Of a stretch of 64,000 bases of DNA, positions 2,118 through 58,825 are shown one piece after another. The translations under genes and the position numbers were made by a program. Origin of the DNA: Anaerolineae bacterium (GTDB taxonomy: Bacteria; Chloroflexota; Anaerolineae; DTLA01); assembly GCA_034436295.1 (NCBI GenBank), contig DAOTVT010000071.1:1208-65207 (forward strand), given 5' to 3'. The notes beneath the pieces were generated by a model. That model searched no databases, was not told where the DNA came from, and was given only the letters and a program-made list of their open reading frames with translations. Position 1 is the stretch's first letter. Each line of letters opens with the position of its first letter.

Positions 2118-5100
2118 CTACCCTTCTATCCTCAGCAACCCCAAGACCAGGGGTTCGCCGTCCAGGTTGTGCTCCTGCAGGTGGGCGCCCTGTGGGGCGT
2201 CGCCCTCTGCCAGTTCGTCGGCCAGCGTCTCCTGCCGGATGTAGTCGCCGAACTCCGCGAACACCGCCTGCAGCCCCGCGCCGCAGCGGTAGAAAACCCG
2301 AATGTGGTCCTCAATGCGGAAGCCGGCGTCCTTGCGCTGCGTCTGGATGCGGCGCACGACTTCTCGCGCCATTCCTTCGCGCACCAGCGCCTCGGTGAGG
2401 GCCGTGCTCACTGCCACCACCAGGCCGTTCTCCTCGGCGACCGAGAAGCCTTCCTTGCTGTGGACGCGCACCTCCACTTCCTCAGGGAGGAGTTCCACCT
2501 CCTCGCCGTCCACCGAGACGCGCACGCTTCTGCCCGCCTGCAATTCGCGGGCCAGGTGGGCCGCAGGCAGCGCCGCGACCGCCGCGCGGAGTTTCGGGAA
2601 CCGCGCACCGTGCTTCTTGCCCAACACGTTGGGAAGCAGGCCGATCTCGTAGCGCACCAGGTCGTCGGCCTGGGCCACGACCTCCATCGCCTTGACGTTC
2701 AGTTCGTCGGTGATGACCGCCGCCATCCGCTCCACGATGGCCCGTGCGTCGTCATCTCTGGGCTTCACGATGACCTTCGCCAGCGGCTGGCGCACCTTGA
2801 GGTTCGCGGCGTTGCGGGCCGCGTGCCCCAGGCTCACCACCTGCCGCACCAATTGTACATCGGCCACCAGGGTGTTGTCAATTGCGGCGCGGTCGGCGAC
2901 GGGGAAGTCGCACAGGTGCACGCTCAACGGCGCGTTGGGGTCCACGCTCCGCACCAGGTTCTGGTACATCTCCTCGGACAGGAACGGCGTGAAGGGGGCC
3001 ATCAACTTGGCCAGGGTTACCAGGCACTCGTAGAGCGTGAGGTAGGCCGCGACCTTGTCCGTGTCCTCGCCGCTCTTCCAGAATCGGCGGCGGCTACGGC
3101 GGACGTACCAGTTGCTCAGCCCGTCCACGAATGCCTCAATGGCGCGGGTGGCGCCCGTTACGTCGTATGCGTTCAGGGACGCATCCACTCGCTCCACGAG
3201 CAGGTTCAACTCGGCCAGCACCCAGCGGTCCAGTTCCGACCGCTTGTCCAGCGGCATGGTGTGCTCCATCGGGTTGAAGCGGTCAATGCGTGCGTAGGTT
3301 ACGAAGAACGAGTAGGTGTTCCACACCGTGAGCAGGAAGCGGCGCAGGGTCTCGCGCACCAGTTCATTGCCGAAGCGGCGCGGATACCAGGGGGCCGCCA
3401 CCGAGTAGGTGTACCAGCGCAGCGCGTCGGCCCCTTGCTCGTTGAGGATGGGCCACGGGTCCACCACGTTGCCCACGTGCTTGCTCATCTTGGCGCCCTT
3501 CTCGTCGGTGCCGAACTCGGTAACCAGGCAGTTCTTGAACGCCGGGCTGTTGAACAACATGGTGGCCACGGCGTGGAGCGTGTAGAACCAGCCGCGGGTC
3601 TGGTCAATGGCCTCGCAAATGAAGTCGGCCGGGAACTGCTCCTTGAAGATATCCTGGTTCTCAAACGGGTAGTGCCATTGGGCGACGGGCATGGAGCCGG
3701 AGTCAAACCAGGCGTCGGCGACCTCGGGGATGCGGCGCATTTGCCCGCCGCACTCGGGGCACTTGAGGACGACGGCGTCCACGAACGGGCGGTGCGGGTC
3801 CAGGTCCGACAGGTCGCGCCCGGCCATCTGCCCCAACTCGGCCAGACTGCCGACGCAGATGCGGTGGCCGCAGTCCTGGCATTCCCAGATGGGCAGGGGC
3901 GTGCCCCAATAGCGCTCGCGGCCCAGCGCCCAGTCCACATTGGTCTCCAGCCAGTTGCCGAAGCGCCCGTGCTTGATGTGCTCGGGGTACCAGTTGATCT
4001 GCTCGTTGGTCGCCAGCATCTGGTCGCGGACCTTGGTGGTCTCAATGTACCAGGTGGTCTTGGCGTAGTAGAGCAGGGGCTGGTGGCAGCGCCAGCAGAA
4101 GGGATACGAGTGCTCGTACTTGGCCGCGCGGTACAGCAGGCCGCGGGTCTTCAGGTCGTCGGTGATGAGCGGGTCGGCGTCCTTGACGAACATGCCGCGC
4201 CAGGGCGTTACCTCGTTCACGAAGCGCCCGCGCAGGTCCACCGTCATGAGCACGGGCAGGTTGTACTCCTTGCCCACGTCCAGGTCGTCGGCCCCGAAGG
4301 CCGGCGCGATGTGGACGATGCCTGTGCCCTCCTCGGTGTTCACGAAGTCCGCGCCCACCACGTAGGCGTAGTCCTTGTCCACGGGCAGGAAGGTGTAGAG
4401 GGGGCGGTAGTGCTTGCCGATGAGTTCCTTCGCCTTCACCGAACGCAGGACCTGATACTCGCCGCGCAGGGCGTATTCCAGCAGCGCCTTGGCGAGGATG
4501 AGTTTGTCGTCGCCCTGCTGCACCAGGACGTACTCCACATGCGGGTGCACCGCCAACGCCACGTTCCCAGGGAGCGTCCACGGCGTCGTCGTCCACACCA
4601 GGAAATACGTCCCCGGCTCATCGCGCAGGGGGAACTTGACGAATACCGACGGGTCCTGCACGTCGCGGTAGCCCTGGGAGACCTCGTGGCTGGAGAGGGA
4701 CGTGCCGCAGCGAGCGCAGTAGGGCACGACCTTGTACCCCTGGTAGATGAGCCCCTTGTCCCAGAGTTGCTTGAGAATCCACCAGAGCGATTCCACATAC
4801 TCGGTCTTGTAGGTGATGTAGGCGTTCTCCAGGTCAATCCAGAACGCGATGCGCTCCGTCAGTTGCTCCCACTCTTTCACGTAGCGCCACACGCTCTCGC
4901 GGCACTTCTCGTTGAACGCCTCCACGCCATAGGCTTCAATCTCGGCCTTGCTGTTGATCCTGAGTTCCTTCTCCACTTCCAGTTCAACGGGAAGGCCCTG
5001 GGTGTCCCATCCGCCCTTGCGCAGGACGTAGTATCCCTTCATGGTGCGGTAGCGCGGGAAGAGGTCCTTGAGGACGCGCGGCAGGACGTGCCCGGCGTGC

Positions 5101-5261
5101 GGACGGCCGTTGGCCGTGGGCGGGCCTTCGTAGAAGACCCAACGCGGGGCGTCCTTGCGCAGTTCCAGGCTCTTGGCGAAGACGTTGTGCGCCCGCCAGA
5201 ACTCCAAGATGCCCTCTTCCATCTTCGGGAAGTTGACCTGTGGCGAAACCTCACGAAACAT
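2118..5261 (-). CDS. ileS: isoleucine--tRNA ligase
   Basis: 1047 aa with class I aaRS signatures (PPTANGRPHAGH, GWDTQGLPVE, KMSKHVGN) and typical IleS architecture and length. ATG at 5261 is preceded by a GGAGGGG RBS. Confidence 0.95.
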   Translation of the reverse strand: MFREVSPQVNFPKMEEGILEFWRAHNVFAKSLELRKDAPRWVFYEGPPTANGRPHAGHVLPRVLKDLFPRYRTMKGYYVLRKGGWDTQGLPVELEVEKELRINSKAEIEAYGVEAFNEKCRESVWRYVKEWEQLTERIAFWIDLENAYITYKTEYVESLWWILKQLWDKGLIYQGYKVVPYCARCGTSLSSHEVSQGYRDVQDPSVFVKFPLRDEPGTYFLVWTTTPWTLPGNVALAVHPHVEYVLVQQGDDKLILAKALLEYALRGEYQVLRSVKAKELIGKHYRPLYTFLPVDKDYAYVVGADFVNTEEGTGIVHIAPAFGADDLDVGKEYNLPVLMTVDLRGRFVNEVTPWRGMFVKDADPLITDDLKTRGLLYRAAKYEHSYPFCWRCHQPLLYYAKTTWYIETTKVRDQMLATNEQINWYPEHIKHGRFGNWLETNVDWALGRERYWGTPLPIWECQDCGHRICVGSLAELGQMAGRDLSDLDPHRPFVDAVVLKCPECGGQMRRIPEVADAWFDSGSMPVAQWHYPFENQDIFKEQFPADFICEAIDQTRGWFYTLHAVATMLFNSPAFKNCLVTEFGTDEKGAKMSKHVGNVVDPWPILNEQGADALRWYTYSVAAPWYPRRFGNELVRETLRRFLLTVWNTYSFFVTYARIDRFNPMEHTMPLDKRSELDRWVLAELNLLVERVDASLNAYDVTGATRAIEAFVDGLSNWYVRRSRRRFWKSGEDTDKVAAYLTLYECLVTLAKLMAPFTPFLSEEMYQNLVRSVDPNAPLSVHLCDFPVADRAAIDNTLVADVQLVRQVVSLGHAARNAANLKVRQPLAKVIVKPRDDDARAIVERMAAVITDELNVKAMEVVAQADDLVRYEIGLLPNVLGKKHGARFPKLRAAVAALPAAHLARELQAGRSVRVSVDGEEVELLPEEVEVRVHSKEGFSVAEENGLVVAVSTALTEALVREGMAREVVRRIQTQRKDAGFRIEDHIRVFYRCGAGLQAVFAEFGDYIRQETLADELAEGDAPQGAHLQEHNLDGEPLVLGLLRIEG

Positions 5262-5662
5262 GCGACCCCTCCGAGAAAGCCTTTAGCCGTTGGCCGATAG
5301 CCTCTAGCGAGCAGCGGTCAGCGGTCGGCGGACACGGGATTGCCTCGGCGTGCCGACGGCAGACCGCAGTATGCGAACCGCTGCAACAAAAAACTCCCGC
5401 CCCATAGGGACGAGAGCGATCTCCCGCGGTACCACCCTGCTTGACAGGCGAGCCTGTCCACTCTGTGGGTACGTGTTCATACCCCCGCCGCTGTAACGGG
5501 CGCGCCCCGGCCAAGTCTACTGGGAGTTGCCTCCGTTCGGTTGGCGGCTCCGGAAGGATTTTCGTCGGGGTTCGCGCATCCGGCTCCCACCGGCCCCGGA
5601 CTCGCTGGGCGTCTCCGCCCGACTACTCGTTTCCATCACAGCCTTTGGTTGGCGTATTCGGT
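5262..5662 (-). promoter_or_regulatory. T-box riboswitch leader of ileS
   Basis: On the minus-strand transcript: stem-III hairpin GACAGGCUCGCCUGUC followed by the canonical T-box sequence AAGCAGGGUGGUACCGCGGGAG (plus-strand reverse complement at about 5422..5443). This is followed by a 10-bp hairpin (CUCUCGUCCC/GGGGCGGGAG) and a U6 tract ending about 30 nt before the ileS ATG. A candidate Ile specifier (AUC) lies within GAAAAUCC; specifier assignment is tentative. Confidence 0.7.
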
Positions 5663-20141: not shown

Positions 20142-20221
20142 AGAGTTGTGTCGCCGCGAGCGCGGGAACGTTCGCGGGTTCCCGATGGCTTGCGAGTCCC
20201 AACCCTGGGGAGTTGTGTACG

Positions 20222-21034
20222 ATGAACGTTCTGATCTCGGTGGACATGGAAGGCATCTCCGGCGTGGTTACGACCGATCACGTTACCGCCACCCACAAGG
20301 AGTACGACCGCTTCCGCAAGTTGATGACCGCCGACGCCAATGCCGCCGTTGAGGGGGCGCTCGCGGGCGGGGCCACACGCGTGGTGGTCAACGACAGCCA
20401 CGGGGGCATGGCCAACATCTTGCTGGAGGAGTTGAACCCCGCCGCCGAACTCATCTCGGGAAGCCCCAAGCCGTTGAGCATGATGGAGGGCATCGGCCCG
20501 AATGTGGACGCGGTGTTCTTCGTGGGCTACCATTCGCGCATGGGCACGGGCGGGGGTGTCCTGGCCCATACCTACGCAGGGAGCATCGTTACCGAGTTGC
20601 GCCTGAACGGGCAGGCCGTCGGCGAGACGGGGCTGAACGCCGCCGTGGCCGGGGCCTACGGCGTGCCGGTGGTGCTGGTAACCGGCGACCGTGCGGTTAC
20701 CGAGGAGGCCCGCGCGCTGCTCGGCGACATAGAGACGGTCGCCGTCAAGGAGGGCGTGGGGTGGAAAGCCGCGCGCTGCCTGCACCCCGATGTGGCGCAT
20801 CGGCAGATACGGGAAGCCGCCGAGCGCGCCATGCGCAAGAGGGTGGCGCCGTTTGTGGTGGCGACGCCCGTGGAGGTGCGGGCCGTGTTCCAGCGCCTGG
20901 CCCAGGCCGATATGGCCGCGCTGATTCCCGGCAGCCGCCGAACCGACGGCCTGACCCTGGAGTTCACAGCGCCGGACATGGAGACCGCGTACAGGACGTT
21001 CCGCGCGATGGTGGCTCTGGCCGGCACGGTGTGA
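20222..21034 (+). CDS. D-aminopeptidase DppA family (peptidase M55)
   Basis: MNVLISVDMEGISGV...NDSHGGM signature of the M55 D-aminopeptidase family; ~270 aa. Confidence 0.85.
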   Translation: MNVLISVDMEGISGVVTTDHVTATHKEYDRFRKLMTADANAAVEGALAGGATRVVVNDSHGGMANILLEELNPAAELISGSPKPLSMMEGIGPNVDAVFFVGYHSRMGTGGGVLAHTYAGSIVTELRLNGQAVGETGLNAAVAGAYGVPVVLVTGDRAVTEEARALLGDIETVAVKEGVGWKAARCLHPDVAHRQIREAAERAMRKRVAPFVVATPVEVRAVFQRLAQADMAALIPGSRRTDGLTLEFTAPDMETAYRTFRAMVALAGTV

Positions 21035-21088
21035 AGTACGGACAGAGTAGGGATGAAGTCAAGACTTGAAGAGACCGAGGGGAGAGAG

Positions 21089-22090
21089 ATGAAAGGATTA
21101 GCAAAAAAGAAAGCACAGCCACAACCGTCGGCAGAGCAGGAAGAACCCAAGAAATCCAAGCGCCGCGCCCCAAGGGTGGTCGTGGACCCACGCGTGATGG
21201 AACGGTCGCTGGCGCACGTCCACCGCGTGCTGGAGGAAAGGGCTCCCGAGACTCCGGAGGAAGCGCAGGCCATTCTGGACGAGTTGATGGCATCTGGCGA
21301 GATTCCTCAGGTCCCCCCGCGGAGCCCGCTGGAGCAAGCGCAGGAGATCATGTACGACGCGTGGGAGGCGAGGGGCGCCAAGCGGGCCAAACTGGCGCGC
21401 GAAGCCCTGAAAGTCTCGCCCGACTGCGCCGATGCCTACGTGCTTCTTGCGGAGGAAACCGCACGTACCGCGCAGGAAGCGCATGACCTGTTTGAGCAAG
21501 GGGTGAAAGCCGGGGAGCGGGTGCTTGGAGCCCGCATGTTCCAGGAGGAGGCGGGGAACTTCTGGGGGATTCTGGAGACCCGGCCGTACATGCGAGCGCG
21601 CGCCGGCCTTGCCTGGAGCCTGTGGGCGATGGGGAAGCGCCAGGAGGCTATAGATCATCTTTGGGACTTGCTCCGCTTGAACCCCAACGACAACCAGGGG
21701 AACCGTTACGCGCTCATGGCCTGGCTGTTGGCCACGGGGGACGATGCAGGGGCGCGGAGGCTGCTGGATCAGTATGCCGACGACCCCTCGGCTGGCTGGG
21801 CCTACAACCGCGCGATTCTGCTGTTCCGCAAGGTTGGCGACACGGCCAAATCCAGCCGCGCTCTGGACAAGGCGCTGGGCATGAACCCCTTTGTGCCGTT
21901 GTACCTGATTGGGGTGAAGGCGATGCCCTCGCGCATGCCTGGGTTCGTACAACCGGGCGGTGAAAGCGAGGCCATAGAGTATGTGGGCATAACATGGGAG
22001 GTGTGGTTCGAGACCCCAGGCGCGCTGGACTGGCTTGTGAACGCGCTTGACCGCAAGATAGCGGCATTGGAAGCCAAGGTACGCCGTTGA
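21089..22090 (+). CDS. hypothetical helical-repeat (TPR-like) protein
   Basis: GAGGGGAGAG RBS before ATG; lysine-rich N-terminus then alpha-helical repeat region; no confident family. Confidence 0.5.
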   Translation: MKGLAKKKAQPQPSAEQEEPKKSKRRAPRVVVDPRVMERSLAHVHRVLEERAPETPEEAQAILDELMASGEIPQVPPRSPLEQAQEIMYDAWEARGAKRAKLAREALKVSPDCADAYVLLAEETARTAQEAHDLFEQGVKAGERVLGARMFQEEAGNFWGILETRPYMRARAGLAWSLWAMGKRQEAIDHLWDLLRLNPNDNQGNRYALMAWLLATGDDAGARRLLDQYADDPSAGWAYNRAILLFRKVGDTAKSSRALDKALGMNPFVPLYLIGVKAMPSRMPGFVQPGGESEAIEYVGITWEVWFETPGALDWLVNALDRKIAALEAKVRR

Positions 22091-39306: not shown

Positions 39307-39514
39307 TGTCCCCTCCCCAAATGGAAATGCGCCACGGCCGGGCGGAAACGCATGACCATACCGCGTGGCTAGCATGTGCATTATACGTGTCGCCGACGCC
39401 CCCGGCAAGAAGGCTGGCCGCAAGGTTCGGGTTCGTCTTGCATCGGCGACGCGAGGTGCGACGCACCTTCCACAGTGCGCCGCACCTATCACGCGCACAG
39501 CGCCAGAGCGCCCG

Positions 39515-40159
39515 CTACCGCAGTTGTTTCCACACTTCCTGGACGAACAGGGGTTCGGGGTAGGCGCCCTCCACCGCGATGGTCTCGTTGATGACGGAGC
39601 GCGGCACGCCCTGCACCTGGTACTTGATGGCCAGGTCGGGGAACTCCATCGCCTCCACCATGTCGGCGCGGACGCGGTCGCTCTCCAGCGCCATCTGGAA
39701 CGCGAGCAGCACGGCTCGCGGGCAGTACGGTCAGGTGGGGGTTACGAACACCTGGATGTGCAGGTCTTGCTTCAGTTCCGCCAGGGCCTTCTTGGTGGCG
39801 TCCTTCAGCCCGCTCTCGCGCCGCGATACCATCATGATGCTTTCCACCAGCGACGAGAACTCGTACCCCGACGGGATGCCGTAGAAGCGGATGCCGTAGT
39901 CCTTCTCGCCGATGACCGCGATGGCGGGGATTCGCGCGATGTTGTACGGCGCGATCTTGTCCTTGTCGGCGACGAAGTCGTACACCTCAGCGGTGATCTT
40001 GTCCGAGAGTTCGGCCAGTTCCTCCACGATCTCGCGGGTTTCCTTGCAGAAGTCGCATTCAAAGTCCTGGGTTACCATGATGAGTTTCACGGGATGTACC
40101 AGTTTGGCCGCGAACTCCTTTTGCAGGTACTCGCGGTCTTTGGGTTGAATCATCGGCAT
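39515..40159 (-). CDS. thioredoxin-fold (glutaredoxin-like, two-domain) candidate selenoprotein with in-frame UGA at 39731..39733
   Basis: Track ORFs 39731..40159 and 39515..39712 are in the same frame, separated only by TGA. Reading through gives ...HIQVFVTPT-U-PYCPRAVLLA..., i.e. UxxC at the CxxC position of the second Trx-like half. The first half has CDFC. GAGGAGGG RBS sits before the ATG at 40159. A 7-bp hairpin (CGCGAGC-CGUGCU-GCUCGCG) lies 10 nt downstream of the UGA. Confidence 0.6.
39701..39720 (-). promoter_or_regulatory. candidate bacterial SECIS hairpin
   Basis: Perfect 7-bp stem with a 6-nt loop starting 10 nt 3' of the in-frame UGA. Confidence 0.35.
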
Positions 40160-40238
40160 GTGTTGCCCTCCTCACAGAATGTTGTGGGCGCAGAAACACG
40201 GGGAGTTGGAGATTCCCCGTGTTCCTGCGCGGGTTGCG

Positions 40239-40652
40239 TCATTTGGTCGCGATGCTAATCTTGCGCGGCTTGAGTTCCGGCGCCTTGGGCAGGGTGATCT
40301 TCAGGATGCCGTCCTCGTAGTGGGCCTCAATGTTCTGGGCGTCCACCTCCATGGGGATTTGGATGACACGGCGGTAGGTGCCGCTGGTGCGTTCGCAGCA
40401 CAGGTAGTCGGCCTCCTCGGGATACGCCTTGCGCTCGGCGCGCAGGGTGAGGGTGTCGCCCTCCAGCGTAACGTCAATGGAGTCGCGGTCCACGCCGGGG
40501 AGGTCCGCGTAGATGACCAGTCGGTCGCCCAGGTCAAAGATGTCCACCGGCGGCGCCCAGGTGCGCTCCTCGGGTTCTTCGCCCCAGGGTTCGCCGAACT
40601 CGCCCCAGGGGCCTCGCCGCGCCCATCGCGGTCGGAACAACGGGTACCACAT
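40239..40652 (-). CDS. Hsp20/alpha-crystallin family small heat shock protein
   Basis: Alpha-crystallin domain (PPVDIFDLGDRLVIYADLPGV...AHYEDGILKITLPK). Confidence 0.9.
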   Translation of the reverse strand: MWYPLFRPRWARRGPWGEFGEPWGEEPEERTWAPPVDIFDLGDRLVIYADLPGVDRDSIDVTLEGDTLTLRAERKAYPEEADYLCCERTSGTYRRVIQIPMEVDAQNIEAHYEDGILKITLPKAPELKPRKISIATK

Positions 40653-40882
40653 ACAACCACCTCCTGCATGTAATCCCAGCGTTGCGCAGCGCGCAGGCGC
40701 TGGAGAGTATTCTGAAATTTAGATGCAGGAGGGAGCGAAAGGATTCAGGAGGCGGACACAGAACGAACCACAAATGGACGCGAATCTTCGCGAAGATTGA
40801 TCCACGAATAACACGAATCTGACAAATGCTCCTGGTCGTGCGCCTGGCGCTTCGCAACTGCGGCCGGTGGCAGCGATCCCTG

Positions 40883-41629
40883 CTAGATCACGCACTCGGC
40901 TCGCTCCACCTCGCGCTCGTACAGTCGGATCAGCGCCTCGTAGTCCAGGAACTGCATTCTGTCCCTGATGGGCTCAAAGGCGCTGCGCCGCTTCTTGTCT
41001 TCAAACTCGCGCCTGCGCCTTGCGTCTGCGACGATCACCATCCGCACGTGAAAGTCCTGCAATTCGTAGAACTTGAGCATGGCATTCTGCATGTCCGTGG
41101 AATGCTCCACCTCAAAGAGGCTGTGCGGCATCTGTCGCGAATTGAGCCAGACAACATCTATCGTCTCGCAGTAGTGCATCAGGTGATCGTAGGTAAACCG
41201 CGGGAGCGTTTGGAGCGTCGGCACTTCTCCGAGGCGCTTGTTGAGGAACGGCTTGTTCCTGTCCTGCTGCGGGATGTACGTGCCCAGGTTGCGGAGATTG
41301 CCGATGGTGGCGAGGATTCCCTGGTAGTAGGCGTGGCCCTGCTCATCGGGTGCGATTTCCCTGGCCTTCCCGTACTCCGTCAGGCCCAGTCTCTGCTGGT
41401 ACGCGCGAAGCGCCCAGAGACCCGGGCGCACCTTGAAGATCTCGGGGCGGGTCTGAACAATGCGGCGGATGGAGGCGAAGGGGGTCTTTGTGCCCCAGAC
41501 GCACCCTTCCAATTTCATAACCTCTCGGTACAACTGCTCCAGGGTGGCCTGTCCGCCAAGCCGCTCCAGCGCGAGGATCACGGCCTCGTATTGCTTCATG
41601 CTCTCATCCCCGTGGTGTTCTGCCATCAT
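40883..41629 (-). CDS. hypothetical protein with N-terminal winged-helix and C-terminal PD-(D/E)XK-like (restriction-endonuclease-like) region
   Basis: wHTH-like N-terminus (YEAVILALERLGGQATLEQLYREV) and C-terminal EVEHS...K motif; flanked on both sides by dispersed repeats; start uncertain. Confidence 0.45.
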   Translation of the reverse strand: MMAEHHGDESMKQYEAVILALERLGGQATLEQLYREVMKLEGCVWGTKTPFASIRRIVQTRPEIFKVRPGLWALRAYQQRLGLTEYGKAREIAPDEQGHAYYQGILATIGNLRNLGTYIPQQDRNKPFLNKRLGEVPTLQTLPRFTYDHLMHYCETIDVVWLNSRQMPHSLFEVEHSTDMQNAMLKFYELQDFHVRMVIVADARRRREFEDKKRRSAFEPIRDRMQFLDYEALIRLYEREVERAECVI

Positions 41630-41659
41630 TATACACCCGCCCCGCCTGTTGTCCAAGCC

Positions 41660-42065
41660 CCCGCCGCGTATGGATTCGGTTCCGCCTCGTGTTGGCGTGC
41701 CCCCTGGCTTCGGCGGCTACGGAAAGCCGCCCCACGTGTCTACTGTAACCGCGAATCCACGCGAATCCACGCGAATGGAGAACAGCCCCTATCCTCCATT
41801 CGTGTGAATTCGTGTTATTCGTGGATAGCGTTTAGCGAGCGTGGGGCGGGTTCCCATACGTGCCCCCTTCGTCCGGCGGCTATGGAGAGCCGCCCTACGT
41901 GTCTACTGTAACCGCGAATCCACGCGAATCCACGCGAATGGAGAACAGCCCCTATTCGTGTGAATTCGTGTTATTCGTGGATAGCGTTTAGCGAGCGTGG
42001 GGCGGGTTCCCATACGTGCCCCCTTCGTCCGGCGGCTACGGAAAGCCGCCCTACGTGTTTGGGTC
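41660..42065. repeat. tandemly duplicated composite repeat (families E, C, D; two ~185-bp copies)
   Basis: CCCCCTGGCTTCGGCGGCTACGGAAAGCCGCCCCACGTGTCTACTGTAACCGCGAATCCACGCGAATCCACGCGAATGGAGAACAGCCCCTAT...ATTCGTGTTATTCGTGGATAGCGTTTAGCGAGCGTGGGGCGGGTTCCCATACGTGCC is repeated twice. Confidence 0.85.
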
Positions 42066-42132
42066 AAGCCCGCTTGACACGCCGCCCCGCCGCCCGTACA
42101 ATGCCGGCGAAGAATCCCGTCGGAGAGGCGCA

Positions 42133-42945
42133 GTGAAATCCCCGCGAACGCATATCCTCACCGTGGCGGCGTGGCTGGCGCTGGGCGCGGCCCTGGCGCC
42201 CTGGGTCGGCCCCTTCGGCCGAACGATGCAGGGCGCGCTCGGCAAGGTCTCGTGGGACTTCACCCTGTGGGCCACGCCGGTGTGGGCGCTGGCGGTGGCG
42301 GCGTGCGCGGCGCTGGGCACCCATGAGGTCATCGCGGCCCACCCCAAGGCGCGCCGCGGCGAGTTGAGCCACACCGCCCACTACTGGCCCACCCCTGCCC
42401 TGGTGGCGGCTGCTGCGGTCGTCCATGCGGCGCGGCTGCGGTCGGGGGCGGCTGTGGAGGGGCTGGCCGTCGGCGTCGGCGCGGCCGTGGCCGGCGTCCT
42501 GTGGCTGGAGTGGGCCACGGTGGACGCCGCCGAGCGGCCTTATGCCCGCGCGCGCTGGGCGCTGAACGTGGCCGACTACGCGGCGGCACTGGCGGCGTTC
42601 ACGGCGGCGCTCACCGGCAACCCGACGCCCGCGCAGGCCGGCGCGTTGTGCGGGGTGGCGGCGGGACTCGGGACGCTGGACCTGCTGCGACTGCCCGACC
42701 GCACGCCCGACTCGGTGGCTCTCTACGCGCCCCTCGTGGGGGCCATCGTTGGGGGCGGGGCGAGTCGGATGGCGCAAGGGGGGCTTTCCCCGACGGGCGC
42801 GGCGCTCATCTTGCTCCTCGTGGCCTATGCGCTCACGGGCATCCTCCAGCACCACCTTCGCCAGCAGTTGACATGGCGGGTGCGGCTGGAGTACTTCGGG
42901 CTTCTCGTGCTGGGGACGCTGGCGCTGCTGCGCTGGGTGGCGTGA
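42133..42945 (+). CDS. hypothetical polytopic membrane protein
   Basis: ~270 aa, Ala/Leu-rich with ~8 predicted TM segments; GTG start inferred. Confidence 0.5.
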   Translation: MKSPRTHILTVAAWLALGAALAPWVGPFGRTMQGALGKVSWDFTLWATPVWALAVAACAALGTHEVIAAHPKARRGELSHTAHYWPTPALVAAAAVVHAARLRSGAAVEGLAVGVGAAVAGVLWLEWATVDAAERPYARARWALNVADYAAALAAFTAALTGNPTPAQAGALCGVAAGLGTLDLLRLPDRTPDSVALYAPLVGAIVGGGASRMAQGGLSPTGAALILLLVAYALTGILQHHLRQQLTWRVRLEYFGLLVLGTLALLRWVA

Positions 42946-56365: not shown

Positions 56366-56583
56366 CGCGCGTGGTTCCTGTGCTCAGCAGCAGGCAGGTG
56401 GTGAAGGCGTTTGAGCGACTTGGGTCGGCTGACGTAGCGACGGATCCAGGAAGGCAAGCATCATCCGCGCGTCGGGTTCGGAAGGAGGTGGTGCGCGGGA
56501 TTACGCAAACGGCGGGTTCATCGGGGAGAGTAGCGCCTGGACTGGGCGGTGAGGGCCACTTCATGAGCCGCCTGCCCAGTTGA
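56362..56583 (+). pseudogene. probable decayed HicA-family toxin gene
   Basis: First ~20 codons (PVLSSRQVVKAFERLG) match HicA. The continuation lacks the GSH/VPxH motifs, and a GKHH-like fragment appears only in the +1 frame. The 3' end overlaps the glmS ribozyme P1. Confidence 0.35.
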
Positions 56584-56770
56584 CGAGGACGGAGGTTCCT
56601 CACCTCGCGGTGAGGCTAACCGGCACGCGCCGGGAAAATCGGAAGATCGGCGGAAGCCTCCGGGGGCGATCCCGCCCCCACAACTCCCCTCCAAAACGAG
56701 CGCGTCCCCAAATCCGCGCGGGCGACCGCCGGGACAAAGGGCCGCGCAGGGATCGGGCGAGACTCATCGT
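56530..56770 (+). ncRNA. glmS ribozyme (glucosamine-6-phosphate-activated)
   Basis: Cleavage-site sequence UAGCGCC at 56531-56537. P1 is CUGGGCGG...CCGCCUGCCCAG. Core GACGAGGACGGAGGUU and AUCGGCGGAAGCCUCCGGGGGCGA match the conserved GACGAGGAUGGAGGUU and UCGGCGGAUGCCUCCCGG elements. Located upstream of glmS. Confidence 0.6.
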
Positions 56771-56989: not shown

Positions 56990-58825
56990 ATGTGCGGGAT
57001 TGTGGGATACATCGGCCCCCGCGACGCGACGCAAATCATCATGGACGGCCTGCGCCGTCTGGAGTACCGCGGCTACGACTCGGCCGGCATCGCCGTGCTA
57101 CAGGAGGGGCGCCTGGTCGTCCGCCGCGACGCCGGCAAACTGGCCAACCTCGCCGCCATCCTGGAGCGCGAGCCGGTGCACGGCCCCGTCGGCATCGGCC
57201 ACACGCGCTGGGCCACCCACGGCCGGCCCAGCCAGCGCAACGCCCATCCCCACACCGATTGCACGGGCGAGATCGTGGTCATCCACAACGGCATCGTGGA
57301 GAACTTCATGGCGTTGAAGGCGGAACTGCAGGCCGAAGGGCACCGATTCCGCTCGGATACCGACACGGAAGTAATCGTGCATCTTGTGGAGAAGTACTAC
57401 CAGGGCGACATCGCCGAGGCGGCGCGGGCGGCCTTCCAGCGGCTGCGCGGCGCCCACGCCATTGTCGTCATGACGTCGCGCGAACCCGACCGACTTGTGG
57501 CGACGCGCATCGGCAACGCGGGAGGCGTAACGGTGGGCCTGGGCGACGACGAGATGTTCCTGGCCTCGGATATCCCTGCGATTCTGGAGCACACGCGCCG
57601 CATGGTCTTTCTGGAAGACCGCGAGATGGCCGTCGTAACGCGCAGCGGCGCGCAGTACTACCGCCTGACGGGCGAGCCGGTGTCCAAGACGCCCCACACC
57701 GTGCCCTACGATCCGGTGGCGGCGGCCAAGGGCGAGTACAAGCACTTTATGCAGAAGGAAATCTACGAGCAGCCCCGCGCCGTAACCGACACCATTCGCG
57801 GGCGCATGGACTTTGAGACCGGCGAGGCGATCCTGGCGGACGTAGGCATCGGGGAGGACGAGGCGCGCGCCCTGGATCGGGTCGTCATCGTGGCGTGCGG
57901 CACGTCGGCCTACGCGGGCCTGGTGGGCAAGTTCATGCTGGAATCGCTGGCGGGCCTGCCGGTGGAGGTGGACTACGGCTCCGAGTTTCGCTACCGCGAC
58001 CCTCACATCACCCCGCGGACGCTGGTGGTGGCCATCACCCAGTCGGGCGAGACGGTGGACACGCTGGCGGCCATGGACGAGGCGCGGCGCAAGGGGGCCA
58101 GGATCGTGAGCATCGTCAACGCGGTGGGGAGCATGGCAGCGCGCGTGTCCGACGGCGTTATCTACATGCAGGCAGGCCCCGAAATCGGCGTGGCATCCAC
58201 TAAGGCGTTCACCACATCGCTGGTGGATTTGTACCTGCTGGGCACGTACCTGGGGCAGAAGCGCGGGCGGCTGGACAGGGAGCGGTCGCTGGCGCTGGCC
58301 CAGGATTTGGCCGAACTGCCCAATCTGATGGGGAGCGTGCTGGCCAACGGCCACGAGTACGAGGCGCTGGCGCAGTTGTACTACGAGAAGGCCGACTTCC
58401 TGTACCTGGGGCGGGGCATCAACTACCCCATCGCCCTAGAGGGCGCGCTGAAACTCAAGGAAATCTCGTACATCCACGCCGAAGGCTATCCGGCGGGCGA
58501 GATGAAGCATGGTCCCATCGCCCTGATTGACGACCACATGCCGGTCATGATCATCGCCATCCGCGACCGCGTGTACGAGAAGATCATGGGCAACGTGGAG
58601 GAGGTCAAGGCGCGCAACGGGATCGTGCTGGCGCTGGGCACGCAGGGCGACGCGCACCTGGCCGAGAAGGCCGATCATGTGATTTATGTGCCCCCGCTGC
58701 CGGAACTCCTGTCGCCGGTGGTTACGGTCATCCCGCTGCAACTGTTCGCGTACCACATGGCGGTGCGCCGCGGGTGCGATGTGGATCAGCCGCGCAACCT
58801 GGCGAAGAGCGTAACGGTGGAGTGA
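56990..58825 (+). CDS. glmS: glutamine--fructose-6-phosphate aminotransferase (isomerizing)
   Basis: N-terminal MCGIVGY Ntn-amidotransferase start, two SIS domains, 611 aa. Confidence 0.95.
   Translation: MCGIVGYIGPRDATQIIMDGLRRLEYRGYDSAGIAVLQEGRLVVRRDAGKLANLAAILEREPVHGPVGIGHTRWATHGRPSQRNAHPHTDCTGEIVVIHNGIVENFMALKAELQAEGHRFRSDTDTEVIVHLVEKYYQGDIAEAARAAFQRLRGAHAIVVMTSREPDRLVATRIGNAGGVTVGLGDDEMFLASDIPAILEHTRRMVFLEDREMAVVTRSGAQYYRLTGEPVSKTPHTVPYDPVAAAKGEYKHFMQKEIYEQPRAVTDTIRGRMDFETGEAILADVGIGEDEARALDRVVIVACGTSAYAGLVGKFMLESLAGLPVEVDYGSEFRYRDPHITPRTLVVAITQSGETVDTLAAMDEARRKGARIVSIVNAVGSMAARVSDGVIYMQAGPEIGVASTKAFTTSLVDLYLLGTYLGQKRGRLDRERSLALAQDLAELPNLMGSVLANGHEYEALAQLYYEKADFLYLGRGINYPIALEGALKLKEISYIHAEGYPAGEMKHGPIALIDDHMPVMIIAIRDRVYEKIMGNVEEVKARNGIVLALGTQGDAHLAEKADHVIYVPPLPELLSPVVTVIPLQLFAYHMAVRRGCDVDQPRNLAKSVTVE

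Follow-up and report, generated by a model that had tools for sequence, protein, structure and literature searches.

Can a gene that is interrupted by an in-frame TGA codon still encode a complete redox enzyme, with the UGA of its messenger read as selenocysteine (Sec)? This question is raised by a minus-strand locus at positions 39515..40159 of a 64,000-nt stretch of DNA from an Anaerolineae bacterium (contig DAOTVT010000071.1, assembly GCA_034436295.1), hereafter the window. An earlier note on this DNA had proposed the locus as a selenoprotein candidate. On the evidence set out below, which comes entirely from sequences, their comparison and structure prediction, we consider it very probable that the gene encodes a selenocysteine-containing protein disulfide oxidoreductase (PDO), in which UGA codon 143 is decoded as Sec by means of a bacterial selenocysteine insertion sequence (SECIS). 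Support for the proposed interpretation comes from the alignment of the UGA with a Cys column, its recurrence, purifying selection, and a hairpin that is specific to the UGA-containing forms.

Reading Frame and Annotation

The frame opens with the ATG at 40159 and runs on the minus strand to a TAG at 39517..39515, with a TGA at 39733..39731 (codon 143) as its sole interruption. The open reading frame (ORF) listing gives two segments, 39731..40159 (142 aa) and 39515..39712 (65 aa, GTG start), and reading of the frame confirms the earlier description of two segments in one frame, separated by a single TGA. Read through the UGA, the coding sequence comprises 214 codons followed by the TAG stop. 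The product of 214 residues is longer than the ~208 aa previously given for it, but its two-domain, PDO-like identity is upheld by the profile match to TIGR02187 and the homology to 1A8L described below. Both motifs quoted for the protein appear in the translation: CDFC at codons 35-38 (40046..40057) in the first half, and VFVTPT-[TGA]-PYCPRAV at codons 137-150 in the second, where the UGA would turn the redox motif into U-P-Y-C (39722..39733). The strong ribosome-binding site mentioned in the earlier note can be read in the sequence as a Shine-Dalgarno element, GAGGAGGG, at 40173..40166 on the same strand, 6 nt 5' of the ATG.

Public records split the gene into GAB4400106.1 and GAB4400102.1, both annotated as 'hypothetical protein', and JGI splits the same gene into a 'glutaredoxin-like protein' and a 'predicted DsbA family dithiol-disulfide isomerase'. 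Among the Chloroflexota relatives examined, about one PDO gene in seven is annotated with the same error. Once this is repaired, the two pieces become one complete redox enzyme, and the lineages concerned stand out as probable users of selenium.

Protein Family and Fold

For the scan with profile hidden Markov models (HMMs), the UGA of the product was replaced by Cys. The product matches NCBIfam TIGR02187.2 ('PDO_seleno_TRX', protein disulfide oxidoreductase) with a score of 281.5 bits (cut-off 185, E 3e-84), and the match spans profile positions 2-208 of 209. The Pfam match is Thioredoxin_3. The closest Cys relative, P0001, is 97% identical to the window product and aligns end to end with the PDO of Pyrococcus furiosus (1A8L, E 1e-52) and with the homologues from P. 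horikoshii (1J08, E 1e-48), Aquifex aeolicus (2YWM and 2AYT, E ~1e-38) and Aeropyrum pernix (2HLS, E 6e-34). Homology to these solved PDOs extends over the full length (E 1e-52 to 6e-34), with template-modelling (TM) scores of 0.89-0.94, and the shared features are two fused units, a CxxC in each of them, and CPYC as the C-terminal motif. The solved PDOs are all Cys proteins, whereas the window gene encodes the first Cys of CPYC by UGA.

An AlphaFold model was built for P0001, the 97%-identical Cys form, from a 27-sequence alignment, and reached a predicted local distance difference test (pLDDT) score of 94 and a predicted TM (pTM) score of 0.91. In Foldseek, this model superimposes on 1A8L with a TM score of 0.94 and a root-mean-square deviation of 1.9 over 226 columns, displaying two fused thioredoxin-fold units. 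In the model, residue 143 follows strand 133-139 and precedes helix 146-159, as is canonical for the CxxC of the second unit. C35, C38, C143 and C146 are invariant in the homologue alignment, and the U-P-Y-C motif of the window gene is aligned with C143-P-Y-C146. According to the model, the 142-aa N-terminal product would hold the first thioredoxin-fold unit with its CDFC, along with strand 1 of the second unit. The previous statement that neither half is a complete fold is therefore overstated, as the 142-aa part is predicted to contain the whole first unit; the 65-aa part, judged by the model, would be devoid of strand 1 and the active-site turn of its fold.

The product does not qualify as AhpF, as it has 214 residues and no reductase domain, and its scores remain far below the cut-offs of TIGR03140 (75.9 vs 502.9) and TIGR03143 (104.9 vs 687.65). 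With the AhpF N-terminal domain (1ZYN, 1HYU, 4O5Q) it shares the double thioredoxin fold (TM 0.79-0.88, E 1e-10 to 3e-17) and a redox-active CxxC in the second unit. AhpF differs in that this module is fused to a flavoprotein reductase domain and in that its first unit lacks a CxxC. Judged by profile match, homology and model, the locus is a single gene of the two-unit thioredoxin-fold PDO, or 'AhpF N-terminal domain homolog', family (TIGR02187).

Authenticity of the In-Frame TGA

Alignment with the homologues offers a closer view of the codon itself. Among the best 120 homologues listed, a motif search of the UGA column matched 110, with TPTCPYCP in 109 and TPMCPYCP in one; three of the other ten are 142-aa forms truncated at the TGA. 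Cys is found in the nearest two full-length relatives, which are 97% and 94% identical, and three clusters at 94-96% identity consist of 142-residue proteins ending exactly at TPT. These 110 Cys-containing homologues, together with the 65 Cys forms among the 76 related genomes described below, agree with the claim that the UGA occupies the column of the first Cys of CPYC. In every Cys-containing relative both halves reside in one gene, and the concern, raised earlier, that the halves might normally be separate genes can be set aside.

An N-terminal product identical to that of the window occurs on at least 17 contigs from NCBI, ENA, JGI and Logan samples; other samples contributed three more TGA haplotypes. 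Eight distinct haplotypes of the gene could be distinguished, six with TGA and two with TGC, and the downstream frame is intact in all of them. The earlier note had also allowed for a sequencing error, with TGA called in place of TGC or TGT. Since the same TGA recurs in independent assemblies, in diverged haplotypes and in diverged species, the probability of such an error, in sequencing or in assembly, is next to nil.

The TGA might also be real but represent a nonsense allele, a loss of function that leaves only the N-terminal thioredoxin-fold unit, or nothing, functional. Closely related strains do possess an intact TGC allele, and the N-terminal unit keeps its own CDFC, both of which would be in line with this explanation. 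However, the TGA is common to six haplotypes that are separated by synonymous divergence (dS) of up to ~0.6, with no frameshift or extra stop downstream. The ratio of nonsynonymous to synonymous divergence (dN/dS, Nei-Gojobori) between pairs of TGA haplotypes is 0.02-0.07 over the 71 codons after the TGA, at dS of 0.27-0.62, and is indistinguishable from the 0.00-0.09 found upstream of it. These values rule out a decaying pseudogene. The same pattern is seen in eleven species-level lineages, and it is the Cys alleles that are nested inside TGA clades, not the reverse. Taken together, this renders a nonsense allele exceedingly improbable.

Genome-wide reassignment of TGA was considered as well. 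The 49 predicted genes of the window (66% GC) end in TGA (22), TAG (25) or TAA (2). GC contents at codon positions 1/2/3 are 0.72/0.37/0.93 over the 71 codons after the TGA at 39733..39731. Coding-like in-frame extensions follow only two of the TGA-terminated genes in the window, the PDO gene and 20213..21034, and the extension of the latter is the next gene, 21053..22090, which by chance lies in the same frame. A six-frame scan for TGA flanked by open coding-like sequence returned the PDO site and two artefacts 5' of gene starts. Reassignment is therefore rejected, because TGA stops 22 of the 49 genes and the PDO gene is the only one with a coding-like extension that is not a neighbouring gene.

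Distribution Across Species

The distribution of the two forms was followed in a scan of one genome per GTDB species, in which this lineage is represented by 'Chloroflexota bacterium isolate Tumba.bins.16'. The scan returned 80 loci, and the PDO gene was identified by motif search in 76 of them. The Cys column is occupied by TGA in 11 of these genomes and by TGC or TGT in 65, with the downstream protein sequence conserved in all. The 11 Sec forms come nearly all from Chloroflexota, with one from a Zixibacteria metagenome-assembled genome. In a neighbour-joining tree the Sec forms are scattered, and most of them have a Cys form as nearest neighbour.

These forms also bear on the possibility of a split gene, composed of 142 aa up to the UGA and 65 aa initiated at the GTG at 39712, the two products acting separately or reassembling. 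Public gene callers predict exactly these 142-aa and 65-aa ORFs, and the downstream ORF is under purifying selection. The GTG, however, lies inside the loop of the hairpin described below and has no purine-rich Shine-Dalgarno sequence, and 5 of the 11 more distant Sec forms have GTC or GTT for the equivalent Val, neither of which can serve as a start codon. Separate initiation of the 65-aa product is therefore unlikely. The stretch of six codons from the TGA to the GTG, which includes the second active-site Cys, shows only two changes among the haplotypes, both synonymous, and a 65-aa piece would, as the model predicts, miss part of the second unit. With all Cys-form relatives being single genes, we regard a split gene as very unlikely. 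The alignments and substitution patterns instead show one gene, translated through the UGA.

Two Chloroflexota relatives display a further feature of this kind. In L029 (4382-4939) and L076 (3925-4434), the gene adjoining the PDO gene contains TPT-TGA-PYC at about codon 11, in a glutaredoxin-like domain fused to a region that appears PDZ-like by eye. A GCGAAAG/CUUUCGC hairpin is found from 18 nt after this UGA, making the gene a second selenoprotein candidate; the window has no such gene. Both genes contain UGA in L076, and the PDO gene of L029 is a Cys form. Some Chloroflexota relatives thus appear to encode more than one selenoprotein candidate.

Candidate SECIS Hairpin

A perfect hairpin of 7 bp, CGCGAGC-CGUGCU-GCUCGCG, starts 10 nt downstream of the UGA in the messenger and spans nt 14-33 (39720..39701, minus strand), the U of the UGA being nt 1. 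The earlier note had pointed to this hairpin at this spacing, and it is found both in the sequence and as the core of the predicted minimum-energy fold. Its loop presents G22 and U23. In the minimum-energy and centroid structures, the upper hairpin is enclosed by an extended predicted stem that begins directly after the UGA (39691..39730). The sites of this lower stem vary, leaving it without comparative support; the upper stem-loop, our candidate bacterial SECIS, is distinguished by comparative enrichment and by frozen synonymous sites.

We searched the species loci for a hairpin in fixed position, defined as 6-7 bp with the 5' arm from nt 14-15 and the loop from nt 21 after the U of the UGA. 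Such a hairpin is present in 10 of the 11 Sec forms and in 5 of the 65 Cys forms (Fisher p = 3e-8). The stems of the Sec forms vary yet pair (CGCGAGC/GCUCGCG, CCAGGC/GCCUGG, CCGGGC/GCCUGG, CAGGGC/GUCCUG and CGGCAC/GUGCUG), and their loops contain GU (CGUGCU, CGUGC, GGUC, AGUUC or GGUCA). The 3' arm shifts by 1-2 nt between lineages, giving loops of 4-6 nt, in a coding frame that forbids indels. Comparison of the six TGA haplotypes shows variation at 43% of third-codon positions gene-wide and at 0 of 7 inside the hairpin, and only 2 of 208 segments of equal size are as invariant at their synonymous sites. Among the haplotypes, the hairpin shows a single substitution: in L004, a TGC allele, CGA is replaced synonymously by CGC, with loss of an A-U pair. 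These comparative patterns show an RNA hairpin that is under selection only when the UGA is present.

The Cys forms that keep a hairpin at the SECIS position are L017, L018, L019, L045 and L089. Because L017 and L018 are immediate sisters of the Sec forms L021 and L028, their hairpins look like fossil SECIS elements.

Published criteria for a bacterial selenoprotein comprise Sec/Cys pairs, at least two sequences with a conserved TGA, a hairpin directly after the UGA and a small loop containing G (PMC1088965), and all of these are displayed by the window gene. The SECIS of Escherichia coli fdhF, which covers codons 141-153 with its SelB-binding hairpin after UGA140, is likewise a stem-loop that immediately follows the UGA and forms part of the coding sequence. 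In fdhF, the GGUC loop presents G23/U24, numbered from the U of the UGA, and the minimal hairpin begins at a distance of 11 nt from the UGA, close to the G22/U23 and 10 nt of the window gene. The two differ in that the window stem has no bulged U and in that its loop is CGUGCU (6 nt) rather than the GGUC of fdhF, although some relatives of the window gene do have GGUC.

Several results weigh against decoding as Sec through such an element. The Sec form L077 has no hairpin at the SECIS position. The folding energy of the segment after the UGA is unexceptional for GC-rich sequence (z = -0.61 vs shuffles), and minimum free energies show no significant difference between Sec and Cys forms (Mann-Whitney p = 0.15). 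Generic folding energy is thus non-discriminating, and the significance of the hairpin comes only from the comparative tests. Rfam scans, of the window at the gathering threshold and of 39500..40300 at a permissive one, returned no match of SECIS type; a suitable bacterial SECIS model seems to be missing from Rfam, which makes this null result uninformative. Finally, tblastn with E. coli SelA, SelB and SelD and ARAGORN found no SelA, SelB, SelD or tRNA-Sec in the 64-kb window or in 93 fetched loci. The window holds no tRNA gene of any kind. As the window and the fetched loci represent a small part of each genome, the machinery result is uninformative rather than negative. The Sec-decoding trait as such is known from the phylum, with three selenoprotein families in Chloroflexi (Zhang et al. 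2006) and Chloroflexi tRNA-Sec of 8/4 structure (Mukai et al. 2016).

The same results touch on Sec-independent read-through, in which a near-cognate tRNA (Trp, Cys or Arg) would insert an ordinary residue at position 143, favoured by a weak UGA-C context and the hairpin. UGA-C is a leaky termination context in E. coli, and C is the next base after the UGA in all forms, haplotypes and species loci alike; the lack of Sec machinery among the sequences searched would also be in keeping with this explanation. On the other hand, the UGA falls exactly on the catalytic Cys of the CxxC in a family with known Sec forms, where Trp or Arg would destroy the active site. The GU of the loop and the spacing are typical of a SelB-dependent SECIS, and the hairpin persists in 10 diverged Sec forms whose stem sequences differ. 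Read-through by an ordinary tRNA is hence quite unlikely, and Sec insertion at codon 143 is the interpretation that we follow below.

Exchange of Sec and Cys Among Strains

At the level of strains, codon 143 is polymorphic. TGC is found in L004 (GCA_029907165.1) and L005-L007, as compared with TGA in the window, L001-L003, L008 and L011. Assemblies with the TGA allele include GCA_014874485.1 ('Tumba.bins.16'), GCA_036172365.1 and a metagenome-assembled genome with the locus tags Kow00123_07610/07600, and JGI 3300027863 and 3300031463 are among the hot-spring samples of origin. Each of the two TGC alleles falls inside a TGA clade of the haplotype tree, L004 beside L008 and L005 beside L002, at a distance of only 23-26 of 645 nt from its TGA partner. 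One TGC allele keeps a perfect 'fossil' SECIS hairpin, and in the other (L004) the hairpin is broken by the one synonymous change mentioned above. Such close nesting implies, on the strength of the haplotype tree, at least two recent replacements of Sec by Cys, or exchange of alleles by recombination, in one hot-spring Chloroflexota population.

Combined with the scattered Sec forms across Chloroflexota, the nested TGC alleles point to very frequent Sec/Cys switching at codon 143. Exchange at this unusual frequency agrees with the view of 'dynamic evolution' put forward by Zhang et al. (2006). A tentative extension is that the Sec/Cys state of residue 143 is perhaps not fixed but a polymorphism that switches fast, a possibility to which we give less than even weight. 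Should the alleles follow the supply of selenium, or the presence or loss of the Sec machinery in individual strains, which is speculative, the locus would offer a natural system for the Sec-Cys trade-off at population scale.

Proposed Decoding and Function

We infer that UGA codon 143 would be decoded as Sec by the standard bacterial route, following the mechanism of E. coli and Moorella. By analogy, the hairpin 10 nt downstream, with its GU loop, would act as the SECIS and recruit SelB-GTP-Sec-tRNA(Sec) while the UGA is in the A site. The resulting protein of 214 residues would possess U-P-Y-C in place of C-P-Y-C as its C-terminal active site. Failed insertion would lead to termination at the UGA and release of a 142-residue fragment. 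Sec insertion in E. coli reaches an efficiency of only 30-40%, and translation otherwise terminates (PMC4513850); the fragment is therefore expected as a by-product.

From what is known of the family, Sec143, located at the N-terminus of the active-site helix, would be the attacking nucleophile and form a selenenylsulfide with Cys146, and the N-terminal CDFC site would stay thiol-based. By comparison with characterised PDOs of thermophiles, the enzyme is probably reduced by thioredoxin reductase and may reduce, oxidise or isomerise protein disulfides.

Relation to Known Selenoproteins

TIGR02187 is listed as a UxxC selenoprotein in two reviews, with Asgard archaea also mentioned in the 2026 review, and has been described as a selenoprotein in Carboxydothermus hydrogenoformans and Symbiobacterium thermophilum (Zhang et al. 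2006). The NCBIfam model name itself contains 'seleno'. The source of the assignment, reference 12 of the reviews, is reportedly the 2004 prediction by Kryukov and Gladyshev. As the family is already recognised as a selenoprotein family, the window gene is not new biology. It adds to a known selenoprotein family an unannotated member from a different phylum, and brings no new mechanism or family.

The window gene shares with the published members an HMM family score above the cut-off, the UxxC type of motif, and the kind of evidence, namely Sec/Cys pairs and a hairpin directly after the UGA. Published examples are C. hydrogenoformans ABB15282.1 and the S. thermophilum protein. The window gene differs in its host, an uncultured thermophilic member of the Chloroflexota/Anaerolineae, as opposed to the Firmicutes, Symbiobacterium and Asgard archaea named in the reviews and by Zhang et al. 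(2006). It further differs in that Sec and Cys alleles segregate here among near-identical strains. The predicted selenoprotein family is thereby extended into thermophilic Anaerolineae-like Chloroflexota.

Neighbouring Genes and Other Features of the Window

Directly upstream of the PDO gene, on the same strand, lies a gene for a small heat-shock protein of the HSP20 family (40239..40652). All close loci with enough upstream sequence on their contigs have an HSP20 gene in this place and orientation; in locus L012, the gene upstream is cut by the contig end. Such invariable pairing with an HSP20 gene suggests that the PDO may have a role in heat or oxidative stress. The spacer between the two genes measures 79 nt and contains the inverted repeat CACGGGGA...TCCCCGTG. 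A scan for promoters and terminators around the PDO gene gave a single promoter-like match, at 39408..39380 on the minus strand and 3' of the stop codon, and zero terminator-like sites.

Further upstream, two direct repeat units of ~160 bp are located at 41696-42058, with a partial copy at 40766-40794. The units consist of pieces of 97 and 110 nt that are 93-96% identical, with an internal AACCGCGAATCCACGCGAATCCACGCGAA motif and imperfect inverted repeats, and they are intergenic between the ORFs 40883..41656 (minus strand) and 42016..42945 (plus strand). Elsewhere in the window, a T-box leader (105 bits) is found at 5403-5648 on the minus strand, upstream of a 1047-aa ORF (2118..5261, minus strand), and a glmS ribozyme (42 bits) at 56521-56757 on the plus strand, upstream of a 611-aa ORF (56990..58825, plus strand). 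Both are ordinary riboswitch-type leaders.

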